Below, one piece after another: positions 1,938-10,900 of a stretch of DNA of 64,000 nucleotides. A program made the translations under genes and the position numbers. The notes beneath the pieces are model-generated. The model made no database searches, was not told the DNA's origin, and saw only the letters and a program-made list of their open reading frames with translations. Source of the DNA: Alphaproteobacteria bacterium (GTDB lineage Bacteria > Pseudomonadota > Alphaproteobacteria > UBA7887); assembly GCA_965216755.1 (NCBI GenBank), contig CBDCGL010000011.1, forward strand, positions 3,968,001 through 4,032,000. Direction: 5' to 3'. Numbering within the stretch: position 1 is the first letter of the stretch; the number at the start of each line of letters is the position of its first letter.

Positions 1938-2251
1938 ACTTCACGCTGCGCCCTGTGCGCCTTGACGTTGGCCGAGAGATTTCGCGGCGGCGAGGACGCC
2001 TTGGGCCTCGTCCGGCGATTGGTCCGTATGTCTACCGGCATCTTCACGAGGACGCCCGGCTGTGTGTTTTGGGATTCTTGTCAAACGGGCGTGAGTTCGA
2101 ATCGCTTTTGAATAGGTTTTCTAATACGAAATACTCTTGGGTTTTATCAACACGCAAAAGTGCTCTAAATAATTGCATTGTCTAGTCGCGCATTAAGATG
2201 CAATATATGTCCTATTACAATCATATGTAGAAATTTTGTTTACTCAATTCT

Positions 2252-2803
2252 ATGTGCGAAATCGAAGACAGGGAAAGGCGCCGTTTCTTGTATTCGGCCA
2301 CTGCTGCTGTAGGCACTTGCGGTGCGGTTATTTCCGCTTGGCCGATTATCGATAGCATGAATCCGGGGGCCGATCTTCCGAAGTTGTACGAAATGGAGGT
2401 TGATCTAACTGTGATTCATGATGGGGGAAGCAAAACTGTCGTTTGGAGGAACGAGCCGATCTTTATCCGTCATCGGACACAGACCGAAATTGAGGCGGCG
2501 AGACGTGGCGATATCTCCGACTTGCGTGATCCAGAAACAGACTCGGACCGTGTTCACTCGCCGGAATGGTTGGCCGTGGTCGGCGTATGCACCCGATTGG
2601 GTTGTGTCCTGCATGGTCAGGAGGTGGTGGAACACAGAGGCGATTACGGTGGCTGGTTTTGTGTCTGCTGTGCCAGCCATTTCGACACTTCAGGCCGCGT
2701 CCGCGCTGGGGCCGCGCCAAAGAATTTGCGCGTCCCCATGTATGATATCCTGAACGGTACAACGATGGCTTTTCGCACACGGCCAACCCCCCCCATCGTA
2801 TAG
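2252..2803 (+). CDS. PetA-like Rieske Fe-S protein with non-canonical ligand motifs
   Basis: Tat-like RRRFL plus TM helix (AWPIIDSMNP), WRNEPIFIRHRT, DTSGRVRAG; boxes read CTRLGC and CVCCAS instead of CTHLGC and CPCHGS. Confidence 0.88.
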   Translation: MCEIEDRERRRFLYSATAAVGTCGAVISAWPIIDSMNPGADLPKLYEMEVDLTVIHDGGSKTVVWRNEPIFIRHRTQTEIEAARRGDISDLRDPETDSDRVHSPEWLAVVGVCTRLGCVLHGQEVVEHRGDYGGWFCVCCASHFDTSGRVRAGAAPKNLRVPMYDILNGTTMAFRTRPTPPIV

Positions 2804-3114
2804 AATAGTTCGTCCGATTCGCAGATCGCCCAGATGCGTAGCGCCTGTTTCGTCTTCGTCGTCCCTTGATCCTGTCGCACGCTGACAAATGGCGTGATTT
2901 GTTTTTGAGGCCCATCGAACGTCCGCGGACGACAACAACGGGAAGGTTTCTGCTGCCTAGCTGGCGGCGCTCTCAACGGGATCGTAGGTCGGGCGCGTTA
3001 CATTGCGCCTGCGCGTTTGGTCGCGGCCAGACCTTCGGCGCAATTGACCGGCTTGTCGCCGCATCGATATGCTACCGATTCTTTGCTCAATGTGAATTCG
3101 TCAGAGACGGCGAC

Positions 3115-3671
3115 ATGATTGTTGATGCGTGGGGGCAACATCCCACCCTGAGACACAGTCAGGATCCGATTCTTAAGTCGTTGCGCCGTTGGACCAAGAC
3201 GTGGGCGCCCGAGAAACAGATCCCGGTGTTCGCAACCATTCGGACGATGGATGATGGCGGCGTCGATAGAATGCTGATTGGTGCCTGGGAGGTGCCGCCG
3301 ACCGACAGTCTATTCTATCCGGTATACACGGCATGCGTCGAAGAGCGGGTGCCGTTTTGCACCCAGATTGGCCATACCGGGCCGTTGATGCCGTCGGAAG
3401 TCGGGCGCCCGATCTATTTGTGCCATGTCGCACTCGATTTTCCCGAATTGACGATTGTTGGCGGCCATATCGGCTATCCCCGGACTCAAGAAGCGATCGC
3501 TGTGGCGACCAAACATGAAAACGTTTTCATCGGCACGCCGGCTTACACGGCCCGCCGCCCCGGATAGCAAACAGAATCGACTCCACATTGTCCGAAAGGG
3601 CTCTAGGCTTGTCCGAGCAAACGAAAGCGCTTTTTCTGGGCAAAAACGCCGAACGCGTTTTCCGGTTGTAG
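3115..3671 (+). pseudogene. Amidohydrolase_2-family pseudogene
   Basis: MIVDAWGQHPTLR..., CTQIGHTGPL, DFPELTIVGGHIGYP, KHENVF motifs; central segment appears missing; stop at 3567, then the family-like C-terminus GLSEQTKALFLGKNAERVFRL* ends at 3671 in another frame. Confidence 0.75.
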
Positions 3672-3787
3672 GTTCGCCACTGCGAGCAGGCTTTGCGAAC
3701 CACAAGGTCAGACACGGGCCGCAGCGGTTGGCTGAAAGAGTTTCGGAGCCGATTGGCACGCAGTAACTAAGGCGAGTCGATTGGGCC

Positions 3788-5683
3788 TCACGGCGCTGAT
3801 TTCGGCTGTAAGAGCACCACGCGTGCAATTGGATCGGAAACGTCGACCAATTCGTAGTGTTCGCGGACATACGTTCCGGTTGCACTATCTCTCACTGCAT
3901 TCAACAGTTTGTGCTCCAAGGGGCCTTGTCGGAAATGCACGGTCGCCAGCCAACTGGCCAGCCATTTCGGCATCGAAAACGGACGTTCGCGTGTCGATTC
4001 GGGATCTTTTAGCCCAAACACCCGCGCATAATCACGTTGCACCATCACCACATAGCTCTCCGGATTCTGCTGTAGAAACGCCCATTCGGGAAATTCGTTA
4101 GCAGAATACATAAGCGCGTCCATCTTATAATCCTGTGGGCACACGCCGATCCGTGGCGAGGCCGCCCAAGCACGCCCGTAATAAAGAACCGGTCTGTGCG
4201 CGCGTTCCGGCGCGCCCAAATAGCGGCCGATCGCAGAGAAGGTCGGGTCAGCATAGGAACGTTCCGGCTCGGTGCTGATATCCCGAAAATCAGCCTGGTC
4301 CACCGCCGCTGTCGGCACGCCCCTTTTGATATCCCGCGCACCCAGATAAAAGGAATCGGCGTAGTAGCGCCCGGTTGGGTAGATCCCAACCAGATAGGTC
4401 GCCGAGGCCACGGCGATCAAAACCACTGCGGCGCGATCGACACCTTTGCTCAGGTGCACGGCGCGCCGCGGCATGTCGGTGAGAAATACAAAGAAAAGCG
4501 GCAGAAACGCGGCGCCCAGATGCCAGTGGTCCGCGCGGTTCAGCCCGCTTTTCAGTGTCACCAATGCAAAACCGACCGCGCCCACGAGCAACAAATCACC
4601 CGAAAATGCGCGTTCGCGAAAACGCGGCAGCGCAGCGCCCAGCCCAACAATCGCAATCGCCAGCACGGCAAAAAGCGCGATTGAGTTCACGGTCCAGTAG
4701 AACTCAAAGCTCAAATGCCCCTGCGACATCACGCCGACAACGCGCCGGACCGCGGCGAGATAGTCCCGCCACCCGGTGCCCAACAACGCATAGATGCCGA
4801 TTGCATAAGTCAACAGAGTGGTTGCCGCCACTACCGGGCCTGAGCGCAGGGATCTCAGCCGGTCAGGCCCAAGCAGCGCGGCCCCGTACATGGCGCCGAT
4901 ACCGACCAGCGTTGCCGCCGCATATTCGTGCGAGTAAGTGGCATAAAGCCCGACGATCACGCCCACGGCAATGTTGGCACGCAAATCAAATGGCCGGGCC
5001 GCGGCCAACAAGAGTGCAAAAACTGCGATCAGACGTCGCCCCGCGCTCCAATTCAAACCCAACATGGTGTCGACCAGAATCGGCGCAAGTATGATGAAAA
5101 CCAGAATACGCCAGCGCCGATCCGTGATCGTTAGCTGCAAGGCAACCGTCAAAATCGCAAATTGCACGGCCTCTTGTGTGGCCAGAAAGCTGTAATACGA
5201 CTTGAGCGATGGACCAAAAACCTGCGCCCAACCCCACAGTCCGTAGATCATGGATGGGCCATAAAAAAACTCAAAATCCCTGTATGGAACTTGCCCACAG
5301 GCCATCCGAAAGAGCGATACGATAAAACCGTGATCTTCCATCATCGGGCCGTACCGCGCCACGATGAGCGGGAAATAGGCCAGGAAGAACACCACAAAAA
5401 TACCGACAATTTCTGTTGGGTAGAGACGCACGGCCGGCGCGCCGGCGGCCCGAACCGGTGTGGCCGAAGCCCAGCGGCGGCTCAAAATCGCCGCCAGGCC
5501 CAACACAAACACCGACCAGAGAACCGCCACCCAATAGGCAACCGGCGCATTGTAACCGCGTGCGGCGGCGGCGCTGATCGCCCGGGTGTCGCTCGGAATT
5601 GGAATCAGGTGTGGGACCCACGGCATAAGCACGAGAAATCCGGCCATTGCCGCGATCATTGCTGCTATCGGAGATCGAATCAT
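3788..5683 (-). CDS. Polytopic membrane protein, probable GT-C glycosyltransferase
   Basis: About 12 hydrophobic segments; first-loop motif EDHG...R...GQVPYRDFEFFYGP; soluble C-terminal domain; divergent from gtrB-gtrA. Confidence 0.7.
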   Translation of the reverse strand: MIRSPIAAMIAAMAGFLVLMPWVPHLIPIPSDTRAISAAAARGYNAPVAYWVAVLWSVFVLGLAAILSRRWASATPVRAAGAPAVRLYPTEIVGIFVVFFLAYFPLIVARYGPMMEDHGFIVSLFRMACGQVPYRDFEFFYGPSMIYGLWGWAQVFGPSLKSYYSFLATQEAVQFAILTVALQLTITDRRWRILVFIILAPILVDTMLGLNWSAGRRLIAVFALLLAAARPFDLRANIAVGVIVGLYATYSHEYAAATLVGIGAMYGAALLGPDRLRSLRSGPVVAATTLLTYAIGIYALLGTGWRDYLAAVRRVVGVMSQGHLSFEFYWTVNSIALFAVLAIAIVGLGAALPRFRERAFSGDLLLVGAVGFALVTLKSGLNRADHWHLGAAFLPLFFVFLTDMPRRAVHLSKGVDRAAVVLIAVASATYLVGIYPTGRYYADSFYLGARDIKRGVPTAAVDQADFRDISTEPERSYADPTFSAIGRYLGAPERAHRPVLYYGRAWAASPRIGVCPQDYKMDALMYSANEFPEWAFLQQNPESYVVMVQRDYARVFGLKDPESTRERPFSMPKWLASWLATVHFRQGPLEHKLLNAVRDSATGTYVREHYELVDVSDPIARVVLLQPKSAP

Positions 5684-6281
5684 GGTCGCTATGAGCTCCC
5701 GGACGCGGGCCGCGCTTACCTGGACTTCGCGCGCCGTTCAATCACAGCGCGCCGTGGCTGACAATTGCTTAGACCGCAACCGGAAAACCGTGCTCGCAAA
5801 GAGCCTTATGGAAATGCCGACACCGAACCAAATATGCCAGAATGGCGAATTTCCATCGGACAAGAGCGCCGCGACAATGGAAACTCGCGGCATGTTGCAG
5901 TTACCGCCCCAAGAGTGTCAACGGTGGTGGGAAACGGAATCGGTGCGGTTGCGTGAGACGGCGCCACAGGCTGTCTGGTCGGTGGCGGTGCGGTCCACAT
6001 GCGGCGGCGCCTGCGTGCGCCGCATGCCGTATCACATAAGGCCGACAGGACAGCCCGCACCGGGTCGGGTGCAGACTGGCACGATATCGGCAAATTGCGT
6101 GTTTGGTGTCAGCGGGGCAGACGGGGACTAACTTTAAACATGTGCTTATTTTTGACCGGTTTCGGCGCATTGAAGTCATCACGGGATCAAACCCTGGGCG
6201 TATTGGTCCATAATTGTCGGCGGAGCGCCTACGGTGAGCGCGATTATTCGTGAAACTACGGGACGATTTGAAAGAGACACG

Positions 6282-7301
6282 ATGACATCAATGACGGCGC
6301 AAGAGGAATTCGTGCGAGAGGGCCGACAGCTGATTTCCGTCGTGGTCCCTTGCTACAACGAAGAAGAGGTCGTGCGCCACACCCATGAGCGGCTCGCCGG
6401 CGTACTGTCCGCCCACGCGCCGGATCACGAGATCATTTATGTGGACGATGGCAGCTCCGATCAAACCGCTCTTTTGCTGCGGGAGATCCAGGCGGTGGAT
6501 GCGCGTGTTGGCGTGGTGCGCTTGTCGCGGAATTTTGGCCATCAGGTGGCCGTGACCGCCGGCATCGAATATGCGAAAGGGGATGCGATTGTCATTATAG
6601 ACGCCGATCTTCAGGATCCGCCCGAAGTGATCCCGGAGATGGTTGCCGCGTGGCGCAAAGGCTTCGACATCGTCTACGGCGTACGCAATTCACGTGAAGG
6701 CGAAACGTCGTTCAAGCTCTGGTCGGCCAAACTGTTTTATCGGATCATCAATGCGCTTTCCGAGGTGCCGCTGCCCCTCGACGCGGGTGATTTCCGACTC
6801 ATCGACCGCGCTGCCGCCGCCGCGTTGCGGCAGATGCAAGAACGCCACCGCTTGTTGCGTGCGATGACGTCGTGGGTCGGTTTCAAACAAACAGCGATCC
6901 CATATGAACGGGAAAAACGCTTCGCTGGTGTCACAAAATATCCCCTCCGCAAAATGATCTTGCTTGCCCTCGACGGCATCGTGTCGTTCTCGACCGTGCC
7001 ATTGCGCGTCGTCACTTTCATCGGCCTCGTTCTGTCGGTACTGTCGGTCGTGGGTATCATATACGCATTGGTTTCGCGCCTGCTCACCGACATTTGGGTG
7101 CCTGGCTGGACGTTGCTGTTCATCTCGTCGCTGATGCTCGGCGGACTGCAGCTCGTGTTTCTAGGCGTGATCGGTGAATATGTCGGTCGCATCTATGGCG
7201 AGGTCAAACAACGGCCTCTATTCATCGTCATGGAAACACTCGGCACGGATGAATTCCGGCGGCGATGCACCGAAAGGACGCAAAAGGCAAACCAGGCGTG
7301 A
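6282..7301 (+). CDS. GT2 polyprenol-phosphate glycosyltransferase (GtrB-like)
   Basis: SVVVPCYNEE, VDDGSSD, LSRNFGHQ, IDADLQDPP, GDFRLIDR motifs; two C-terminal TM helices. Confidence 0.93.
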   Translation: MTSMTAQEEFVREGRQLISVVVPCYNEEEVVRHTHERLAGVLSAHAPDHEIIYVDDGSSDQTALLLREIQAVDARVGVVRLSRNFGHQVAVTAGIEYAKGDAIVIIDADLQDPPEVIPEMVAAWRKGFDIVYGVRNSREGETSFKLWSAKLFYRIINALSEVPLPLDAGDFRLIDRAAAAALRQMQERHRLLRAMTSWVGFKQTAIPYEREKRFAGVTKYPLRKMILLALDGIVSFSTVPLRVVTFIGLVLSVLSVVGIIYALVSRLLTDIWVPGWTLLFISSLMLGGLQLVFLGVIGEYVGRIYGEVKQRPLFIVMETLGTDEFRRRCTERTQKANQA

Positions 7302-7708
7302 TCCCCCAGAGAATCTTGTCTTTGGTGCCGGAGCGTTTCCGTCAATTCTTCCTTTACGCGCTGTGTGGCGGCAGTGGTGTCACCTTCGACTTTCTATTGT
7401 ATGTTGCTCTCGTCACGTCGGGCGTGGGCTACCAATTCGCCAATCTCCTCGGTTACGCGGGAGGCACGATCCTTAGCTTCCTTCTTAATCGGGTGATCAC
7501 ATTCGGCGTGCTCGACGCGCCGTTGCTGCGTTTCGCGGGATTTCTAACCGTCGCCGGCATTGGCTATGTCTGCTCCGCCGCGGTTCTTTGGGTCATGATC
7601 GACCGGTATTCGGTCAACGAAATCGCGTCAAAAATTTGCGCCATTATTGTCGTCGTGGTTGTGCAATATACACTGAACGCACGTTTCACCTTCCGAAGGG
7701 CGAAGTAG
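7298..7708 (+). CDS. GtrA-family flippase
   Basis: Small protein with 4 TM segments, SFLLNRVITF and YTLNARFTF motifs; GTG start overlaps the upstream stop. Confidence 0.9.
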   Translation: MIPQRILSLVPERFRQFFLYALCGGSGVTFDFLLYVALVTSGVGYQFANLLGYAGGTILSFLLNRVITFGVLDAPLLRFAGFLTVAGIGYVCSAAVLWVMIDRYSVNEIASKICAIIVVVVVQYTLNARFTFRRAK

Positions 7709-7721
7709 TCCGGGGACAACA

Positions 7722-9044
7722 ATGACGGCGACAGATGTGTACGACTGCGCGATCATCGGCGGCGGTTTCACCGGCCTTGCGGCAGCGGCTGAACTCTCGC
7801 GTACCGGTCGTTCGGTAATTTTGATCGAGAAGGAACATGAACTCGGCGGTCTTGCCGCAGGCTTCAACGTTGGCGAATACGAGCTGGAACGGTTTTATCA
7901 TCACTGGTTCACGAGTGATCGTCACATTTTCGATCTCGCCCAGCAGATCGGCGTATCGGACCGGGTGGTTGTGCGTGATTCCGTCACCGGTATGTATTTC
8001 GCTGGCAAGAACTTCCGCCTGTCGACGCCGCTTGACCTACTCGGCTTCACGGCCCTGCCATTCCACGATCGCGTTCGCACCGGTGTCGCCGCACTGCGCG
8101 CTCGCCGCGTCAAGGAATGGCGCGATCTCGAAGGCGTTACGGCAAAGGACTGGCTTATTAAGCTTTTTGGCGCGAATGCGTTCAGTGTCATTTGGGAACC
8201 TCTGCTGGTCGGAAAGTTCGGTAAACACGCCGATCGCATTTCCGCCGTTTGGTTTTGGAACAAGCTTGCGCTCCGCGGTGGCAGCCGCGGCAAAAGGGGC
8301 GCCGAGCAACTGGCCTATTTTCGTGGCGGGTTTGCGCAACTTGCCCGTGACGTGGCCGCCTATGTCACCGCCAAGGGCGGACATATCGAATCCGGCCTTG
8401 AAGCCAAAACCATCCGAAGATCGGAATCTGGCGTCGCTGTTGAAACCGCCCGTGAACCCATTCACGCGCGGACGGCGCTTGTTACGACGCATTTGCCCGT
8501 TGCGGCGAGACTGTTGGCCGAGAGCGCGACGGCGGCGGAGCTGAAGGCGTTTCGCAAAATCGAATACCTTGGCAATGTTTGCCTAATACTGGAAATGAAC
8601 CGCAGTTTGTCTCAATTCTATTGGACCAATATCAACGATCCGAATTTCCCATTCGTCGGCATCATCGAACACACGAATTTCGAACCCATGGCCTCTTACG
8701 GCGGGCGCCATATCGTGTATCTGTCGAAATATCTCGCAACCGACGACTCGCTCTTTGACAAGGATTCCCATCAAATGTTCGAATTCGCTGTGCCGCACAT
8801 ACAAAGGATGTTTCCGGAGTTCAGGTGCTCTTGGGTCGACGGCTATCATTTGTGGAAAGCCGAATACGCGCAGCCTATCGTTGTGCGACATTATTCGCGA
8901 CTGATCCCTGAATTCGAGCTGTCCGTGCCTGGCGTGTTCTTGGCGACCATGGCCCAAATTTACCCCGAGGATCGTGGGACCAACTACGCTGTTCGCGAAG
9001 GTACCCGCGCCGCAAAGGAAATCGACAAAAGGTTGCCGCGCTAA
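7722..9044 (+). CDS. FAD-dependent oxidoreductase of unknown function (HemY/amine oxidase/UGM-like fold)
   Basis: IIGGGFTGLAAA dinucleotide motif, LGGLA, LERFYHHWF, YPEDRGTNYAV. Confidence 0.85.
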   Translation: MTATDVYDCAIIGGGFTGLAAAAELSRTGRSVILIEKEHELGGLAAGFNVGEYELERFYHHWFTSDRHIFDLAQQIGVSDRVVVRDSVTGMYFAGKNFRLSTPLDLLGFTALPFHDRVRTGVAALRARRVKEWRDLEGVTAKDWLIKLFGANAFSVIWEPLLVGKFGKHADRISAVWFWNKLALRGGSRGKRGAEQLAYFRGGFAQLARDVAAYVTAKGGHIESGLEAKTIRRSESGVAVETAREPIHARTALVTTHLPVAARLLAESATAAELKAFRKIEYLGNVCLILEMNRSLSQFYWTNINDPNFPFVGIIEHTNFEPMASYGGRHIVYLSKYLATDDSLFDKDSHQMFEFAVPHIQRMFPEFRCSWVDGYHLWKAEYAQPIVVRHYSRLIPEFELSVPGVFLATMAQIYPEDRGTNYAVREGTRAAKEIDKRLPR

Positions 9045-10900
9045 GGTAGAGCCGACAGGCGGCGGGCGTCTTCGCGCGTGATCAGCACCTGCCCGTCGGT
9101 GACATCGTCAAAGTCCACATCCTCAAGCGTTCGCGTTGTGAGCCGAGAAAACTCTTCAACCAGTCGCGCTTCATATGGTGAGCCTTTCCGCACGTAGAGG
9201 AAATGCGTGTAGTCACGGCTGATTCCCCAAGGATAGGGAAACTCGCCAACCGATATCCAATTGTCGCGCAGCTCGCGCATTCGGTAGTGGAGTGCGGTGG
9301 CCAACGCGCCATCGCTCATTGTGGCCGCGGCCCGCCCATAATCGGCCAGGGTCTTCCGCGATAGCAGTACGTTTTCGGCATAAGCTGTTTGCCACAGCGG
9401 TTCCTCCGCGGCCGAAGTCGCGCCGGTCGAGGCAGGCGGCACCGGACCGAGATAGGCATCTGGTCTACTGCCCCATATATATTGCTCGCGTTCGATCGGT
9501 GTAATCGGTTCACGGCCGGAAAGAACGTTGTCCACCAAACCAACCGGATCAATGAAAGACACGCGACTGGTAAACGGGATGTAGCCGGCCGCGTCATAGA
9601 CCAACGTCACCTCTGGTCCGCCGCCGGCGCGGATCAATGCGGCCGCCATCGGCTCGTAGTGGTGCCACTGAACCCGGGCAAACCACGGTCGATGATGTCG
9701 GCGGTCCAGATGCATGGTGATCGCCAAGACCACCACGGCAAATCCGGCGGTCGTCATCACCGCGACGGTCGGGCCGCTGAACCGACCAATCAAAACTTGC
9801 AACCGCTCAAAGGCCTTACCCGAAGCCAAAAGCCATCCCACCGCAACCCAAAACAGCGCTTCGACAGGAAACTCCAAGCGATGGTGGTAGTTGACCACGT
9901 GCAATGTCGTTGAATTGTAAAATAGCACCAGCGCCATCGGGACGCACAGAAGCGCCACCTGCGACCATGAGGTTCTGGACCCCGCGGTCGCGAGGGCACG
10001 CCAGTCCAGAAACAGAATCAGGGGCGCAAGGTAGACCGCCTTTTTTGCCAGGTTGAGCGTAAAGCGAAGCACATCCGCCAGCCCGCCGAATGCTAGGTTT
10101 TCCGTGGTCTTTACATAAAACGAATTCGGCAACAGGTAGCCGAAGTAGGCATATTTCCAAGCCAGGTAGGCCGTACCGATCGCGCCAACAATTCCATATG
10201 CTAGAAATAAGGCGCCGAGCATGCCGCTATCACCGTGGCGCCGGCGCATGATCGCCACGAGCCCAAGAACGACACCCTGTCCCGCCAGAAACGGCGCCGT
10301 GTCCGGGCGTGACCAAAGGCAAAGCAGGCTGACCAAGGCCAGCGCAACCGCGAGCGATCGGCGCGGGTGCGATAAAACGTGCAGGCTCACCAAGAAACTT
10401 GTGCTCAGCAGGGCGGCCGCAACGATTGTGTCCATGCCCGAATTCACGTGGACCGAAAACCGCGCGCTTCCTAGATACAAGGCCAGTGGGAGCGCGGCCG
10501 CCAGGGTCAACCGACCGTTCAACCGGGCCGCGATTCGGACCAATACCAACACCAGAACGAGGACGCTGACCGTGCTGATCAGATAGGCCCCGGTCAGCAA
10601 CGGCAGACCAAGCCGCATGGTCGTCGCCACCAATATCGTCTGCAATATCGATGTCGATCCTTCGGTTGGTGGGCCATCGATGTTCCAGACGATACCGAAA
10701 CCCCGCACCAAGTTTTCGGCGAAACGAAAGGTGATGAAGGCATCGTCGGGAAAATGTCCGCCAAAGCGCCAGCTCCGATAAGCCAGCGCCAGAAGAGCCA
10801 GGGCAATCACTGCCCACGGCAGCAGCCGCCGTAAGACCAGCCAAGTGCCGCCGGACCGAACGCCTTCACTGGCTGTTTGTTGGGATTGCCGCAGCGACAT
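9041..10900 (-). CDS. GT-C membrane glycosyltransferase, AftB-like
   Basis: DDAFITFRFAENLVRGFGIVWN...EGSTS first loop, SGMD, RPD, PNSFYVK, AGYIPF..IDPVGLVD motifs; many TM segments. Confidence 0.78.
   Translation of the reverse strand: MSLRQSQQTASEGVRSGGTWLVLRRLLPWAVIALALLALAYRSWRFGGHFPDDAFITFRFAENLVRGFGIVWNIDGPPTEGSTSILQTILVATTMRLGLPLLTGAYLISTVSVLVLVLVLVRIAARLNGRLTLAAALPLALYLGSARFSVHVNSGMDTIVAAALLSTSFLVSLHVLSHPRRSLAVALALVSLLCLWSRPDTAPFLAGQGVVLGLVAIMRRRHGDSGMLGALFLAYGIVGAIGTAYLAWKYAYFGYLLPNSFYVKTTENLAFGGLADVLRFTLNLAKKAVYLAPLILFLDWRALATAGSRTSWSQVALLCVPMALVLFYNSTTLHVVNYHHRLEFPVEALFWVAVGWLLASGKAFERLQVLIGRFSGPTVAVMTTAGFAVVVLAITMHLDRRHHRPWFARVQWHHYEPMAAALIRAGGGPEVTLVYDAAGYIPFTSRVSFIDPVGLVDNVLSGREPITPIEREQYIWGSRPDAYLGPVPPASTGATSAAEEPLWQTAYAENVLLSRKTLADYGRAAATMSDGALATALHYRMRELRDNWISVGEFPYPWGISRDYTHFLYVRKGSPYEARLVEEFSRLTTRTLEDVDFDDVTDGQVLITREDARRLSALP

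Follow-up and report, generated by a model that had tools for sequence, protein, structure and literature searches.

What remains of a Rieske iron-sulphur protein (ISP) of the cytochrome bc1 complex when both of its histidine ligands are gone? The question is raised by a gene at positions 2252-2803 (+ strand) of the 64,000-nt stretch of alphaproteobacterial DNA analysed here, which we call the window. The gene is an open frame of 183 codons plus stop that matches TIGR01416; its product is the PetA-like protein P0001 and its genome is referred to as G000. In a canonical Rieske centre the two histidine ligands are responsible for the high potential and tie the transfer of electrons to the release of protons when quinol is oxidised, and in bc1 the histidine of box II hydrogen-bonds quinol. 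Our best reading of the sequence comparisons is that the P0001 gene is functional and under selective maintenance as an accessory paralog, and is not a lone decaying copy. As to its role, we lean towards a selectively maintained, non-catalytic or low-potential, Cys-ligated accessory isoform of the bc1 Rieske protein that is probably associated with bc1.

Ligand boxes and scaffold of P0001

A preliminary description of the gene had reported an intact frame in which both ligand histidines are replaced, and the sequence bears this out. Box I (2588-2605) reads C113-T-R115-L-G-C118 in place of the canonical C-T-H-L-G-C, codon 115 being CGA (Arg, 2594-2596). Box II (2660-2683) reads C137-V-C139-C140-A-S-H-F in place of C-P-C-H-G-S-H-Y, codon 140 being TGT (Cys, 2669-2671). 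The four canonical cysteines (113, 118, 137 and 139) and the RRRFL motif at residues 9-13 are all there, as claimed, and so are two smaller changes, S-H-F for S-H-Y and G-A-A-P for G-P-A-P, the latter in the Pro loop (G153-A-A-P156, 2708-2719). Just after box I, Leu120 stands in place of the Pro of the canonical G-C-V-P. With boxes C-T-R-L-G-C and C-V-C-C, the canonical Cys2His2 chemistry should indeed be unavailable, and P0001, judged by these residues, cannot have a Cys2His2 centre.

Around the boxes, P0001 resembles canonical PetA/FbcF (TIGR01416; Paracoccus denitrificans 2yiu chain C) in its length, its Rieske head fold, its ligand and disulfide Cys pairs and its FIRHRT and D-x-x-G-R blocks. 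It also shares the uncleaved-type twin-arginine anchor: the motif R9 R10 R11 F L and the predicted membrane helix occupy residues 9-35 (2276-2356, + strand as all features of the gene), and PF10399 (UCR_Fe-S_N, Pfam) matches residues 6-38 with E 3.7e-14. P0001 differs from canonical PetA in having no His ligands (R115 and C140 instead) and in its match to the Pfam Rieske domain, which reaches 14 bits, under the cut-off of 20.3. Conservation is also absent from the tip, from the Pro that follows box I, and from the Pro loop and neck; the neck or hinge, G-A-D-L-P-K-L-Y-E in the alignment (2366-2392), has diverged from the canonical A-D-V-L-A-L-S. A further difference is the C-terminal extension F-R-T-R-P-T-P-P-I-V (2771-2800), which is common to the nearest relatives and absent from canonical PetA. 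Finally, the gene lies outside the pet operon and is an extra copy beside the canonical one.

The two swaps were each said to need two nucleotide changes. This holds for His to Cys; for His to Arg one non-synonymous change suffices (CAY to CGY), and the codon found here, CGA, differs from CAY in two of its letters. A sequencing or assembly artefact at both codons can be set aside as having next to no probability. Contigs from four public runs (two samples of one study, which may be the source of the assembly itself) cover 2100-2950 with no differing letter, so the two odd codons are not an assembly slip and a sequencing error was rejected; one of the four runs is gapped in this interval, away from both swapped codons. 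Moreover, the motifs recur in relatives whose assemblies are unrelated. Short pieces of other contigs match window positions 2339-2370 (32 bases, the W-P-I-I-D-S-M-N-P region) with two differences. The loose ends of these matches read like L002, the locus of another petA of G000 (see below), which points to cross-matching between paralogs and not to a variant of the P0001 gene.

By profile, P0001 belongs with the bc1 Rieske proteins: it reaches 161.3 bits with TIGR01416 (NCBIfam, proteobacterial bc1 Rieske), for which the cut-off is 97.4. The protein is about 52% identical to the PetA of its own genome, its best matches are all bc1 ISPs and not oxygenase-partner ferredoxins, and its best solved relative by sequence is the Paracoccus ISP (2yiu_C, E 9.9e-44). 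We modelled P0001 with AlphaFold2 from a 41-row alignment and obtained a mean predicted local distance difference test score of 91.9, with both boxes at 97-98 and a helix at residues 3-35. The modelled head fits the bovine ISP fragment 1rie with a root-mean-square deviation of 1.2 Å over 127 columns and a template modelling score of 0.93 (relative to the target), and the whole-chain structural matches are bc1 ISPs only. According to the model, the Rieske head fold is retained in P0001.

Conservation, selection and origin of the C-x-C-C group

Relatives were collected with a word-indexed protein search (E <= 0.001; best 120 of 395 matches examined) and with a profile search using P0001, P0010 and P0105 over 1.84 billion representatives (best 150 of 4360 matches examined). 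P0001 was a singleton whose best match, among the matches listed, was 60% identical. P0010 and P0105, both among the best 120 of 395, carry a box II of the form C-x-C-C-A-S-H. The C-x-C-C box is carried by 14 of the 268 proteins collected from both searches, among the matches listed. There, the closest relative is P0127 at 60% identity, with boxes CTRSGC / CPCCASHY; the near relative L034 has CSAPWRC / CPCCASHY, and P0010/L033 has CTYGWKC / C[HP]CCASHF. All of these carry a C-terminal extension of the same type, ending in ...FRSPPRPTA (P0127), ...FRSVPRTPWPI (L034) and ...YSMRKPSELTG (P0010). A decaying paralog had been expected to show itself by nearest homologues that all keep their histidines. 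This is not what we found, because the closest homologues, at 54-60% identity, share the C-x-C-C box and are without both ligand histidines as well.

We refer to these proteins as the C-x-C-C PetA-like group; it was delimited in this analysis and is not a published family. Its extent was surveyed by a DNA motif scan with back-translated W-x-C-x-C-C-[AG]-x-x-[FY]-D-x-x-G-R across 185,579 species, each represented by a single genome. The scan returned 18 loci, of which 16 are PetA-like and two are chance matches. Fifteen of the 16 are titled alphaproteobacterial (Hyphomicrobiales, Rhodobacterales, Caulobacterales and Rhodospirillales), while the record of L024 is titled only 'uncultured proteobacterium'. 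A narrower motif added four loci from a metagenome collection, L034 among them. Together there are about 30 non-redundant proteins, and every organism-labelled one is alphaproteobacterial. Where public annotation is present, it labels them ordinary Rieske subunits, and the numbers of bc1 copies inferred are thereby inflated. Other PetA-like proteins have lost ligands in other ways: P0090 (CTYLGC/CPCHASH), P0112 (CTCSGFNC/CPCHNTQ), P0203 (CPRSGC/CPCDAC), P0156 (CAHLGC/CPCRGS) and P0254 (CTDLGC/CSCHGS). By these boxes, loss of the Rieske histidines among PetA-like proteins reaches beyond the C-x-C-C group.

In an alignment, 31 non-redundant C-x-C-C rows were set against 59 canonical ones. C113, C118, C137, C139 and C140 are invariant in 31/31 C-x-C-C rows, as are W135, D145, G148, R149 and P162; the invariant set includes C118 and C139, the canonical disulfide pair, which P0001 also has. 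The twin arginines are kept where those columns are filled (R9 in 24/25 rows, R10 in 25/25), and so in most rows are the anchor residues W30 (21/27) and P31 (22/27). Position 115 varies: it holds R in 12 rows, H in 6, K in 4, Y in 4, F in 2, N in 1 and other residues in 2, with A and D also seen among the relatives. As read from the alignment, the conserved feature of the group is a fifth cysteine, not the arginine.

The canonical rows keep the His of box I (59/59), L116 (55/59) and G117 (59/59), none of which stays conserved in the C-x-C-C rows. They also keep the His of box II and G141 (59/59 each). P120, after box I, is found in 59/59 canonical rows versus 5/31 C-x-C-C rows, P154 of the Pro loop in 59/59 versus 14/31, and P156 in 59/59 versus 18/31. 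In the neck, the Ala at column 44 is present in 57/59 canonical rows and unconserved in the group, where gaps and Pro are common; the neck of P0001 reads A-D-L-P-K-L-Y. Taken together, the neck, the Qo-docking tip and the Pro loop are 93-100% conserved over the 59 canonical rows and variable over the 31 C-x-C-C rows. In bc1 these are the parts that touch the Qo pocket, that screen the cluster and adjust its properties, and that leave the head free to swing between cytochromes b and c1. This contrast shows that the catalytic features have been specifically released in the group, while export, anchoring, the fold and a cysteine-rich site are retained.

The P0001 gene itself bears no sign of decay. 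P0001 keeps 28/28 of the columns with a conservation of 80% or more within the group and 22/22 of those with 90% or more over all PetA-like rows, and no member scores higher in either count. In a tree built without the box columns (a quick search, with long branches and many unresolved forks), it falls inside a clade of five C-x-C-C rows with a Shimodaira-Hasegawa-like approximate likelihood ratio test (SH-aLRT) value of 96. Its terminal branch (0.51) is no longer than those of its sisters (0.56 and 0.70) or of the two canonical copies of G000 (0.50-0.51). The ratio of non-synonymous to synonymous substitution (dN/dS; Nei-Gojobori, NG86) was 0.30 against L034 and 0.23 against L033; since dS is near saturation in these pairs (1.2-1.5), the values are approximate and more likely too high than too low. 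For several distant pairs dS was incalculable. The sole unsaturated pair within the group is L026 versus L029 (85% identity), with dN/dS 0.16-0.18 at dS 0.47-0.50. A ratio near 1 had been named as the other mark of decay, and the pairwise values of 0.16-0.30 are far from it. The same pair differs at the box I position, L026 (4445-5041) having CTRNSC and L029 (1-372) CTHDSC. From the aligned residues, a C-x-C-C box II seems to make the box I His dispensable.

The gene contexts link the group to bc1. In G010, which comes from the same family as G000, the order is petA'-petA-petB-petC, with the variant first, between hemF and petA. This variant (L037, G010:C459:3500-9000, 3017-3748, - strand) has boxes CTHLPC / CVCCSSHY, so that it keeps the His of box I and, of the ligands, only the His of box II has changed. 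It is 69% identical to the tandem canonical petA and 53% identical to P0001, and it pairs with its tandem petA in the tree (SH-aLRT 98). It looks like a recent tandem duplicate at an early stage of the same path. We also tried a single origin of C-x-C-C: forcing all 29 rows into one clade costs 76.6 log-likelihood units (approximately unbiased test, p 0.018), and this was rejected. The tree topology therefore indicates that C-x-C-C arose at least twice, from petA duplicates; given the quick tree and its long branches, at least two origins is the safe statement.

At L020 and L028 the variant also lies directly upstream of canonical petA-petB, so that petA'-petA-petB(-petC) is found in 3/17 contexts (L020, L028 and G010/L037). 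The description of the window gene as an orphan thus stands, with neither petB nor petC in the 12 kb before it or the roughly 9 kb after it, but it does not extend to the whole group. When the window and the 16 loci were compared by all-against-all BLAST of their open reading frames (ORFs), by ORF maps and by Pfam scans of the flanks, no shared neighbour was found other than petA-petB (L020, L028). At L031 (Actibacterium), a cytochrome b561-YceI fusion (421-1629, + strand) lies directly before the variant on the same strand; it is the sole redox-related non-pet neighbour seen.

A check for a canonical petABC elsewhere in the genome had been suggested, and G000 does have a petA-petB-petC operon (L003, from C11:3739894 onwards) with boxes CTHLGC / CPCHGSHY. 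A second canonical petA with the same boxes (CTHLGC/CPCHGSHY) is an orphan at L002:1486-2166 (- strand; G000:C11, about 20.5-21.7 kb), directly upstream of a 144-aa monohaem cytochrome c (PF00034; L002:988-1422, - strand). A P-type ATPase fragment is found near it. G000 thus has three PetA-type genes, the operon copy, the orphan canonical copy and the window copy, for one petB/petC. Of ten other carrier genomes searched, nine also hold a canonical-scoring PetA, at 211-252 bits (TIGR01416), and the tenth has a partial PetA match at a contig end. By these matches, in every checkable carrier genome the variant adds to the normal subunit and does not replace it.

Metal site and possible roles

Mutants of an archaeal Rieske-type ferredoxin (ARF) give an idea of what such a site could hold. 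As far as the account in PMC2946596 goes, replacing the His of box II with Cys gave a stable low-potential 3Cys-1His [2Fe-2S] cluster, and a three-residue redesign yielded a rubredoxin-like Fe(Cys)4 site; the same account notes that Rieske loops resemble rubredoxin and zinc-ribbon knuckles. By analogy, the members of the group that have a box I His (6/31, the G010 duplicate included) would be the natural counterparts of the 3Cys-1His variant. In members like P0001 the box I His is lost and there is no conserved substitute. Judging from their residues, a metal centre in such members would have to combine three Cys with a ligand that is variable or not from the protein, or recruit one of the invariant 'disulfide' Cys, which would give C-x4-C plus C-x-x-C. 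In comparison with the two C-x-x-C knuckles of a rubredoxin-like Fe(Cys)4 site, the C137-x-x-C140-A of box II is knuckle-like, whereas box I is C-x4-C and not C-x-x-C. For the rubredoxin-like redesign of ARF, a Cys was required where P0001 has L116 (PMC2946596).

The ARF mutants also speak for caution. In the same partial account, changing the box I His to Cys abolished cluster insertion, and the double His to Cys variant was largely impaired in assembly (PMC2946596). After these results, a cluster is far from assured in those members, P0001 included, that have lost the box I His. In a rough split, we give a cysteine-ligated [2Fe-2S] cluster and no bound metal at all equal weight, each somewhat short of an even chance, and consider a mononuclear Fe or Zn site about half as plausible as either. 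The strict retention of the five Cys and of the Tat (twin-arginine translocation) motif suggests that the site would still be assembled in the cytoplasm and then kept in the periplasm.

The preliminary description had proposed a [2Fe-2S] cluster ligated by three Cys and Arg115, as in biotin synthase, or by three Cys and a nearby His. In its favour, Arg is found more often than any other residue at position 115 of box I (12/31), three of the four canonical ligand positions are Cys, and H121 and H143 lie close to the boxes in sequence. However, the position of Arg115 is unconserved in the 31 relatives, down to the A and D seen there, and it flips between R and H in the 85% identical pair that is under purifying selection. 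H121 is conserved in only 2/31 rows. We therefore regard ligation by Arg or by a nearby His as very improbable, and an Arg ligand has no support as a trait of the whole group. The rest of that description, a non-canonical exported Rieske paralog that is possibly a bc1 modulator, holds in outline.

For the role of P0001, we favour an accessory isoform of the bc1 ISP. P0001 would be exported folded via Tat and would stay membrane-anchored. It would be unable to run the His-dependent, proton-coupled quinol oxidation of bc1, and the members of the group probably no longer oxidise quinol, to judge from the positions they have lost. In place of the Rieske centre it may hold a cysteine-ligated centre of lower potential, either a [2Fe-2S] cluster held by three or four Cys or a mononuclear site with Cys ligands. 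It may then occupy, or associate with, the ISP position of bc1 as a non-catalytic or modulating isoform. An isoform in the place of the ISP without Qo catalysis is suggested by the tandem copies inside the operon, the canonical-like anchor and the constant co-occurrence with petABC. A more far-reaching version is that the duplicated bc1 Rieske protein has repeatedly gained an all-Cys or Cys3-X metal centre on its unchanged membrane-anchored scaffold and fills the ISP slot of the bc1 dimer as a switchable, non-bifurcating or silencing isoform, which would serve as a Qo brake or electron sink under particular redox or iron conditions; this we hold to be doubtful.

Several observations weigh against the accessory isoform, and they feed two rival explanations. 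The surfaces of the head that dock on cytochrome b are unconserved in the group, as is the neck, which also fits a protein that is no longer in bc1, and 14/17 contexts are orphan with no common neighbour. The drift of the docking surface and the number of orphan contexts would be compatible with a stand-alone carrier: a Tat-exported, anchored, periplasmic low-potential Fe-S or rubredoxin-like protein that has left bc1 and works with lineage-specific partners. Loss of conservation in the Qo tip, the Pro loop and the neck, alongside a conserved Cys set and fold, would suit such a carrier, as would the b561-YceI fusion directly upstream of the variant at L031. We nevertheless consider it unlikely. 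Three petA'-petA-petB tandems, one of them a recent duplicate inside the operon, speak against it, the anchor residues W30, P31 and G24 are retained as in canonical PetA, and the ORF comparison of the window and 16 loci gave no recurrent alternative partner gene.

The other rival is a decaying or silent paralog, that is, a horizontally acquired petA in an island rich in insertion sequences (ISs), with inactivated ligands, unexpressed and heading for loss. The P0001 gene lies between an IS66 element and a truncated amidohydrolase, with an IS3-like transposase further upstream. No purine run resembling a Shine-Dalgarno sequence was read ahead of its ATG, and its GC content at third codon positions (GC3, 0.585) is below the median of 41 long ORFs of the window (0.665). 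The rarity of the group also counts against the accessory isoform: a looser motif found C-x-C-C in 1/22 family relatives and in 1/400 genomes of an even class-level sample (G000 excluded), or 2/23 and 2/401 with G000 counted. Two of the 16 genomic members look truncated, so loss or decay does happen in the group. One, L019 (about 6402-6674), is an open frame of 87 aa; the other, L023:3825-4175, is a head-only frame of 116-133 aa without anchor, and the same sequence is found in L036 and L042 (three collections). The near-saturated dS values and the unresolved forks of the tree likewise count against the accessory isoform. ISPs that have lost ligands have been called 'deranged' in Acidocella (PMC10715153, as far as its account goes). 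Against decay, the frame is intact with all 28/28 and 22/22 conserved columns kept, and the terminal branch is no longer than those of the sisters or the canonical copies. The His-less state is common to relatives at 54-60% identity with dN/dS of 0.30 or lower, and the two-nucleotide His to Cys change recurred independently. We therefore rate decay as quite unlikely, below the stand-alone carrier, and retain the accessory isoform.

Extra Rieske copies and altered ligands both have precedents. Extra copies are known in bacteria, for example Mll2707/Mlr0970 of Mesorhizobium loti (in the part of PMC6256036 drawn on here). The P0001 gene is like these in being an additional petA-type gene beside the main bc1 operon, and the orphan canonical petA of G000 (L002, by the cytochrome c) is also of this kind. 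In Acidocella, an acidophilic member of the Acetobacteraceae, the 'deranged' ISP has lost three or four ligands and cytochrome b is damaged as well; the authors propose that the non-functional complex is kept for a structural role (Degli Esposti et al. 2023, PMC10715153). P0001 shares with this ISP the bc1 type, the loss of conserved ligands and the retention of the disulfide Cys pair. On the details given in that account it differs, since its group keeps both Cys ligands and gains an invariant fifth Cys, and P0001 is an accessory copy beside an intact petABC.

The change of box II His to Cys on a Rieske scaffold is shared with the engineered ARF of Sulfolobus solfataricus (Kounosu 2004 and Iwasaki 2005, via PMC2946596). 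As described there, the ARF variants are laboratory mutants of a soluble, disulfide-less archaeal ferredoxin, whereas the P0001 group is natural and recurrent and sits on a membrane-anchored, disulfide-bearing bc1 scaffold. In addition, the box I His of the group gives way to a variable, non-ligand-like residue and not to a designed Cys. Low-potential Rieske-type ferredoxins are soluble and anchorless, with Cys2His2 ligands and no disulfide pair; P0001, in contrast, has the anchor and the disulfide Cys and no His ligands. Our full-text searches of the literature, to which this negative is limited, gave no C-x-C-C or His-less accessory PetA. The group is set apart from extra canonical copies and from 'deranged' ISPs in that the Cys ligands are kept, a fifth Cys is fixed, and the form is recurrent and accessory.

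To our knowledge, the ligand rules of the Rieske scaffold have so far been explored only with engineered mutants. The group is a natural experiment on these rules, with one His swapped for Cys and the other drifting, and would be of interest to specialists in Fe-S proteins and bioenergetics. Should P0001 bind a metal and sit in bc1, it would represent an unrecognised way to modulate complex III. Should it bind no metal, it would be a clear-cut example of a pseudo-subunit that selection maintains.

Neighbourhood of the gene in the window

Upstream of the P0001 gene, an IS66-family element occupies 2-1470 on the - strand and comprises a tnpA-like helix-turn-helix (HTH) gene, TnpB_IS66 and the N-terminal part of the transposase (PF01527, PF05717, PF13005 and PF13007). 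It runs on upstream of the window, where DDE_Tnp_IS66 is found at L043:11036-11998 (- strand), and looks complete (tnpA, tnpB and transposase). The IS3-like transposase (HTH_21 + rve) lies somewhat further upstream at L043:10231-10998 (+ strand). A gene for a 23S rRNA intervening-sequence protein was also seen at L043:7016-7468. Just downstream of the P0001 gene, an Amidohydro_2 fragment (2866-3567, + strand; Pfam) covers only profile positions 118-210 of 289 and is likely a gene remnant. In a search of 61 genomes with the protein, the best match other than P0001 itself was 55% identical, and none of the 60 related genomes has a closer homologue. The IS flanks, the low GC3 and the lack of such a homologue fit horizontal acquisition, and the gene was probably acquired horizontally into an IS-rich island.

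A consensus scan gave two promoter-like sites at 2144-2221 (+ strand), in an A+T-richer stretch upstream of the gene; GC content is 0.47-0.49 over 1751-2500. The same type of scan gave a terminator-like hairpin with a T run past the stop codon (2878-2906, + strand). Further along the window, positions 3788-10900 encode a 631-aa multi-pass membrane protein without a Pfam match, a family 2 glycosyltransferase, a GtrA-like protein, an amine-oxidase-type flavoprotein and a DUF2142-like membrane protein. This cluster looks like a locus for glycan or lipid-carrier modification.

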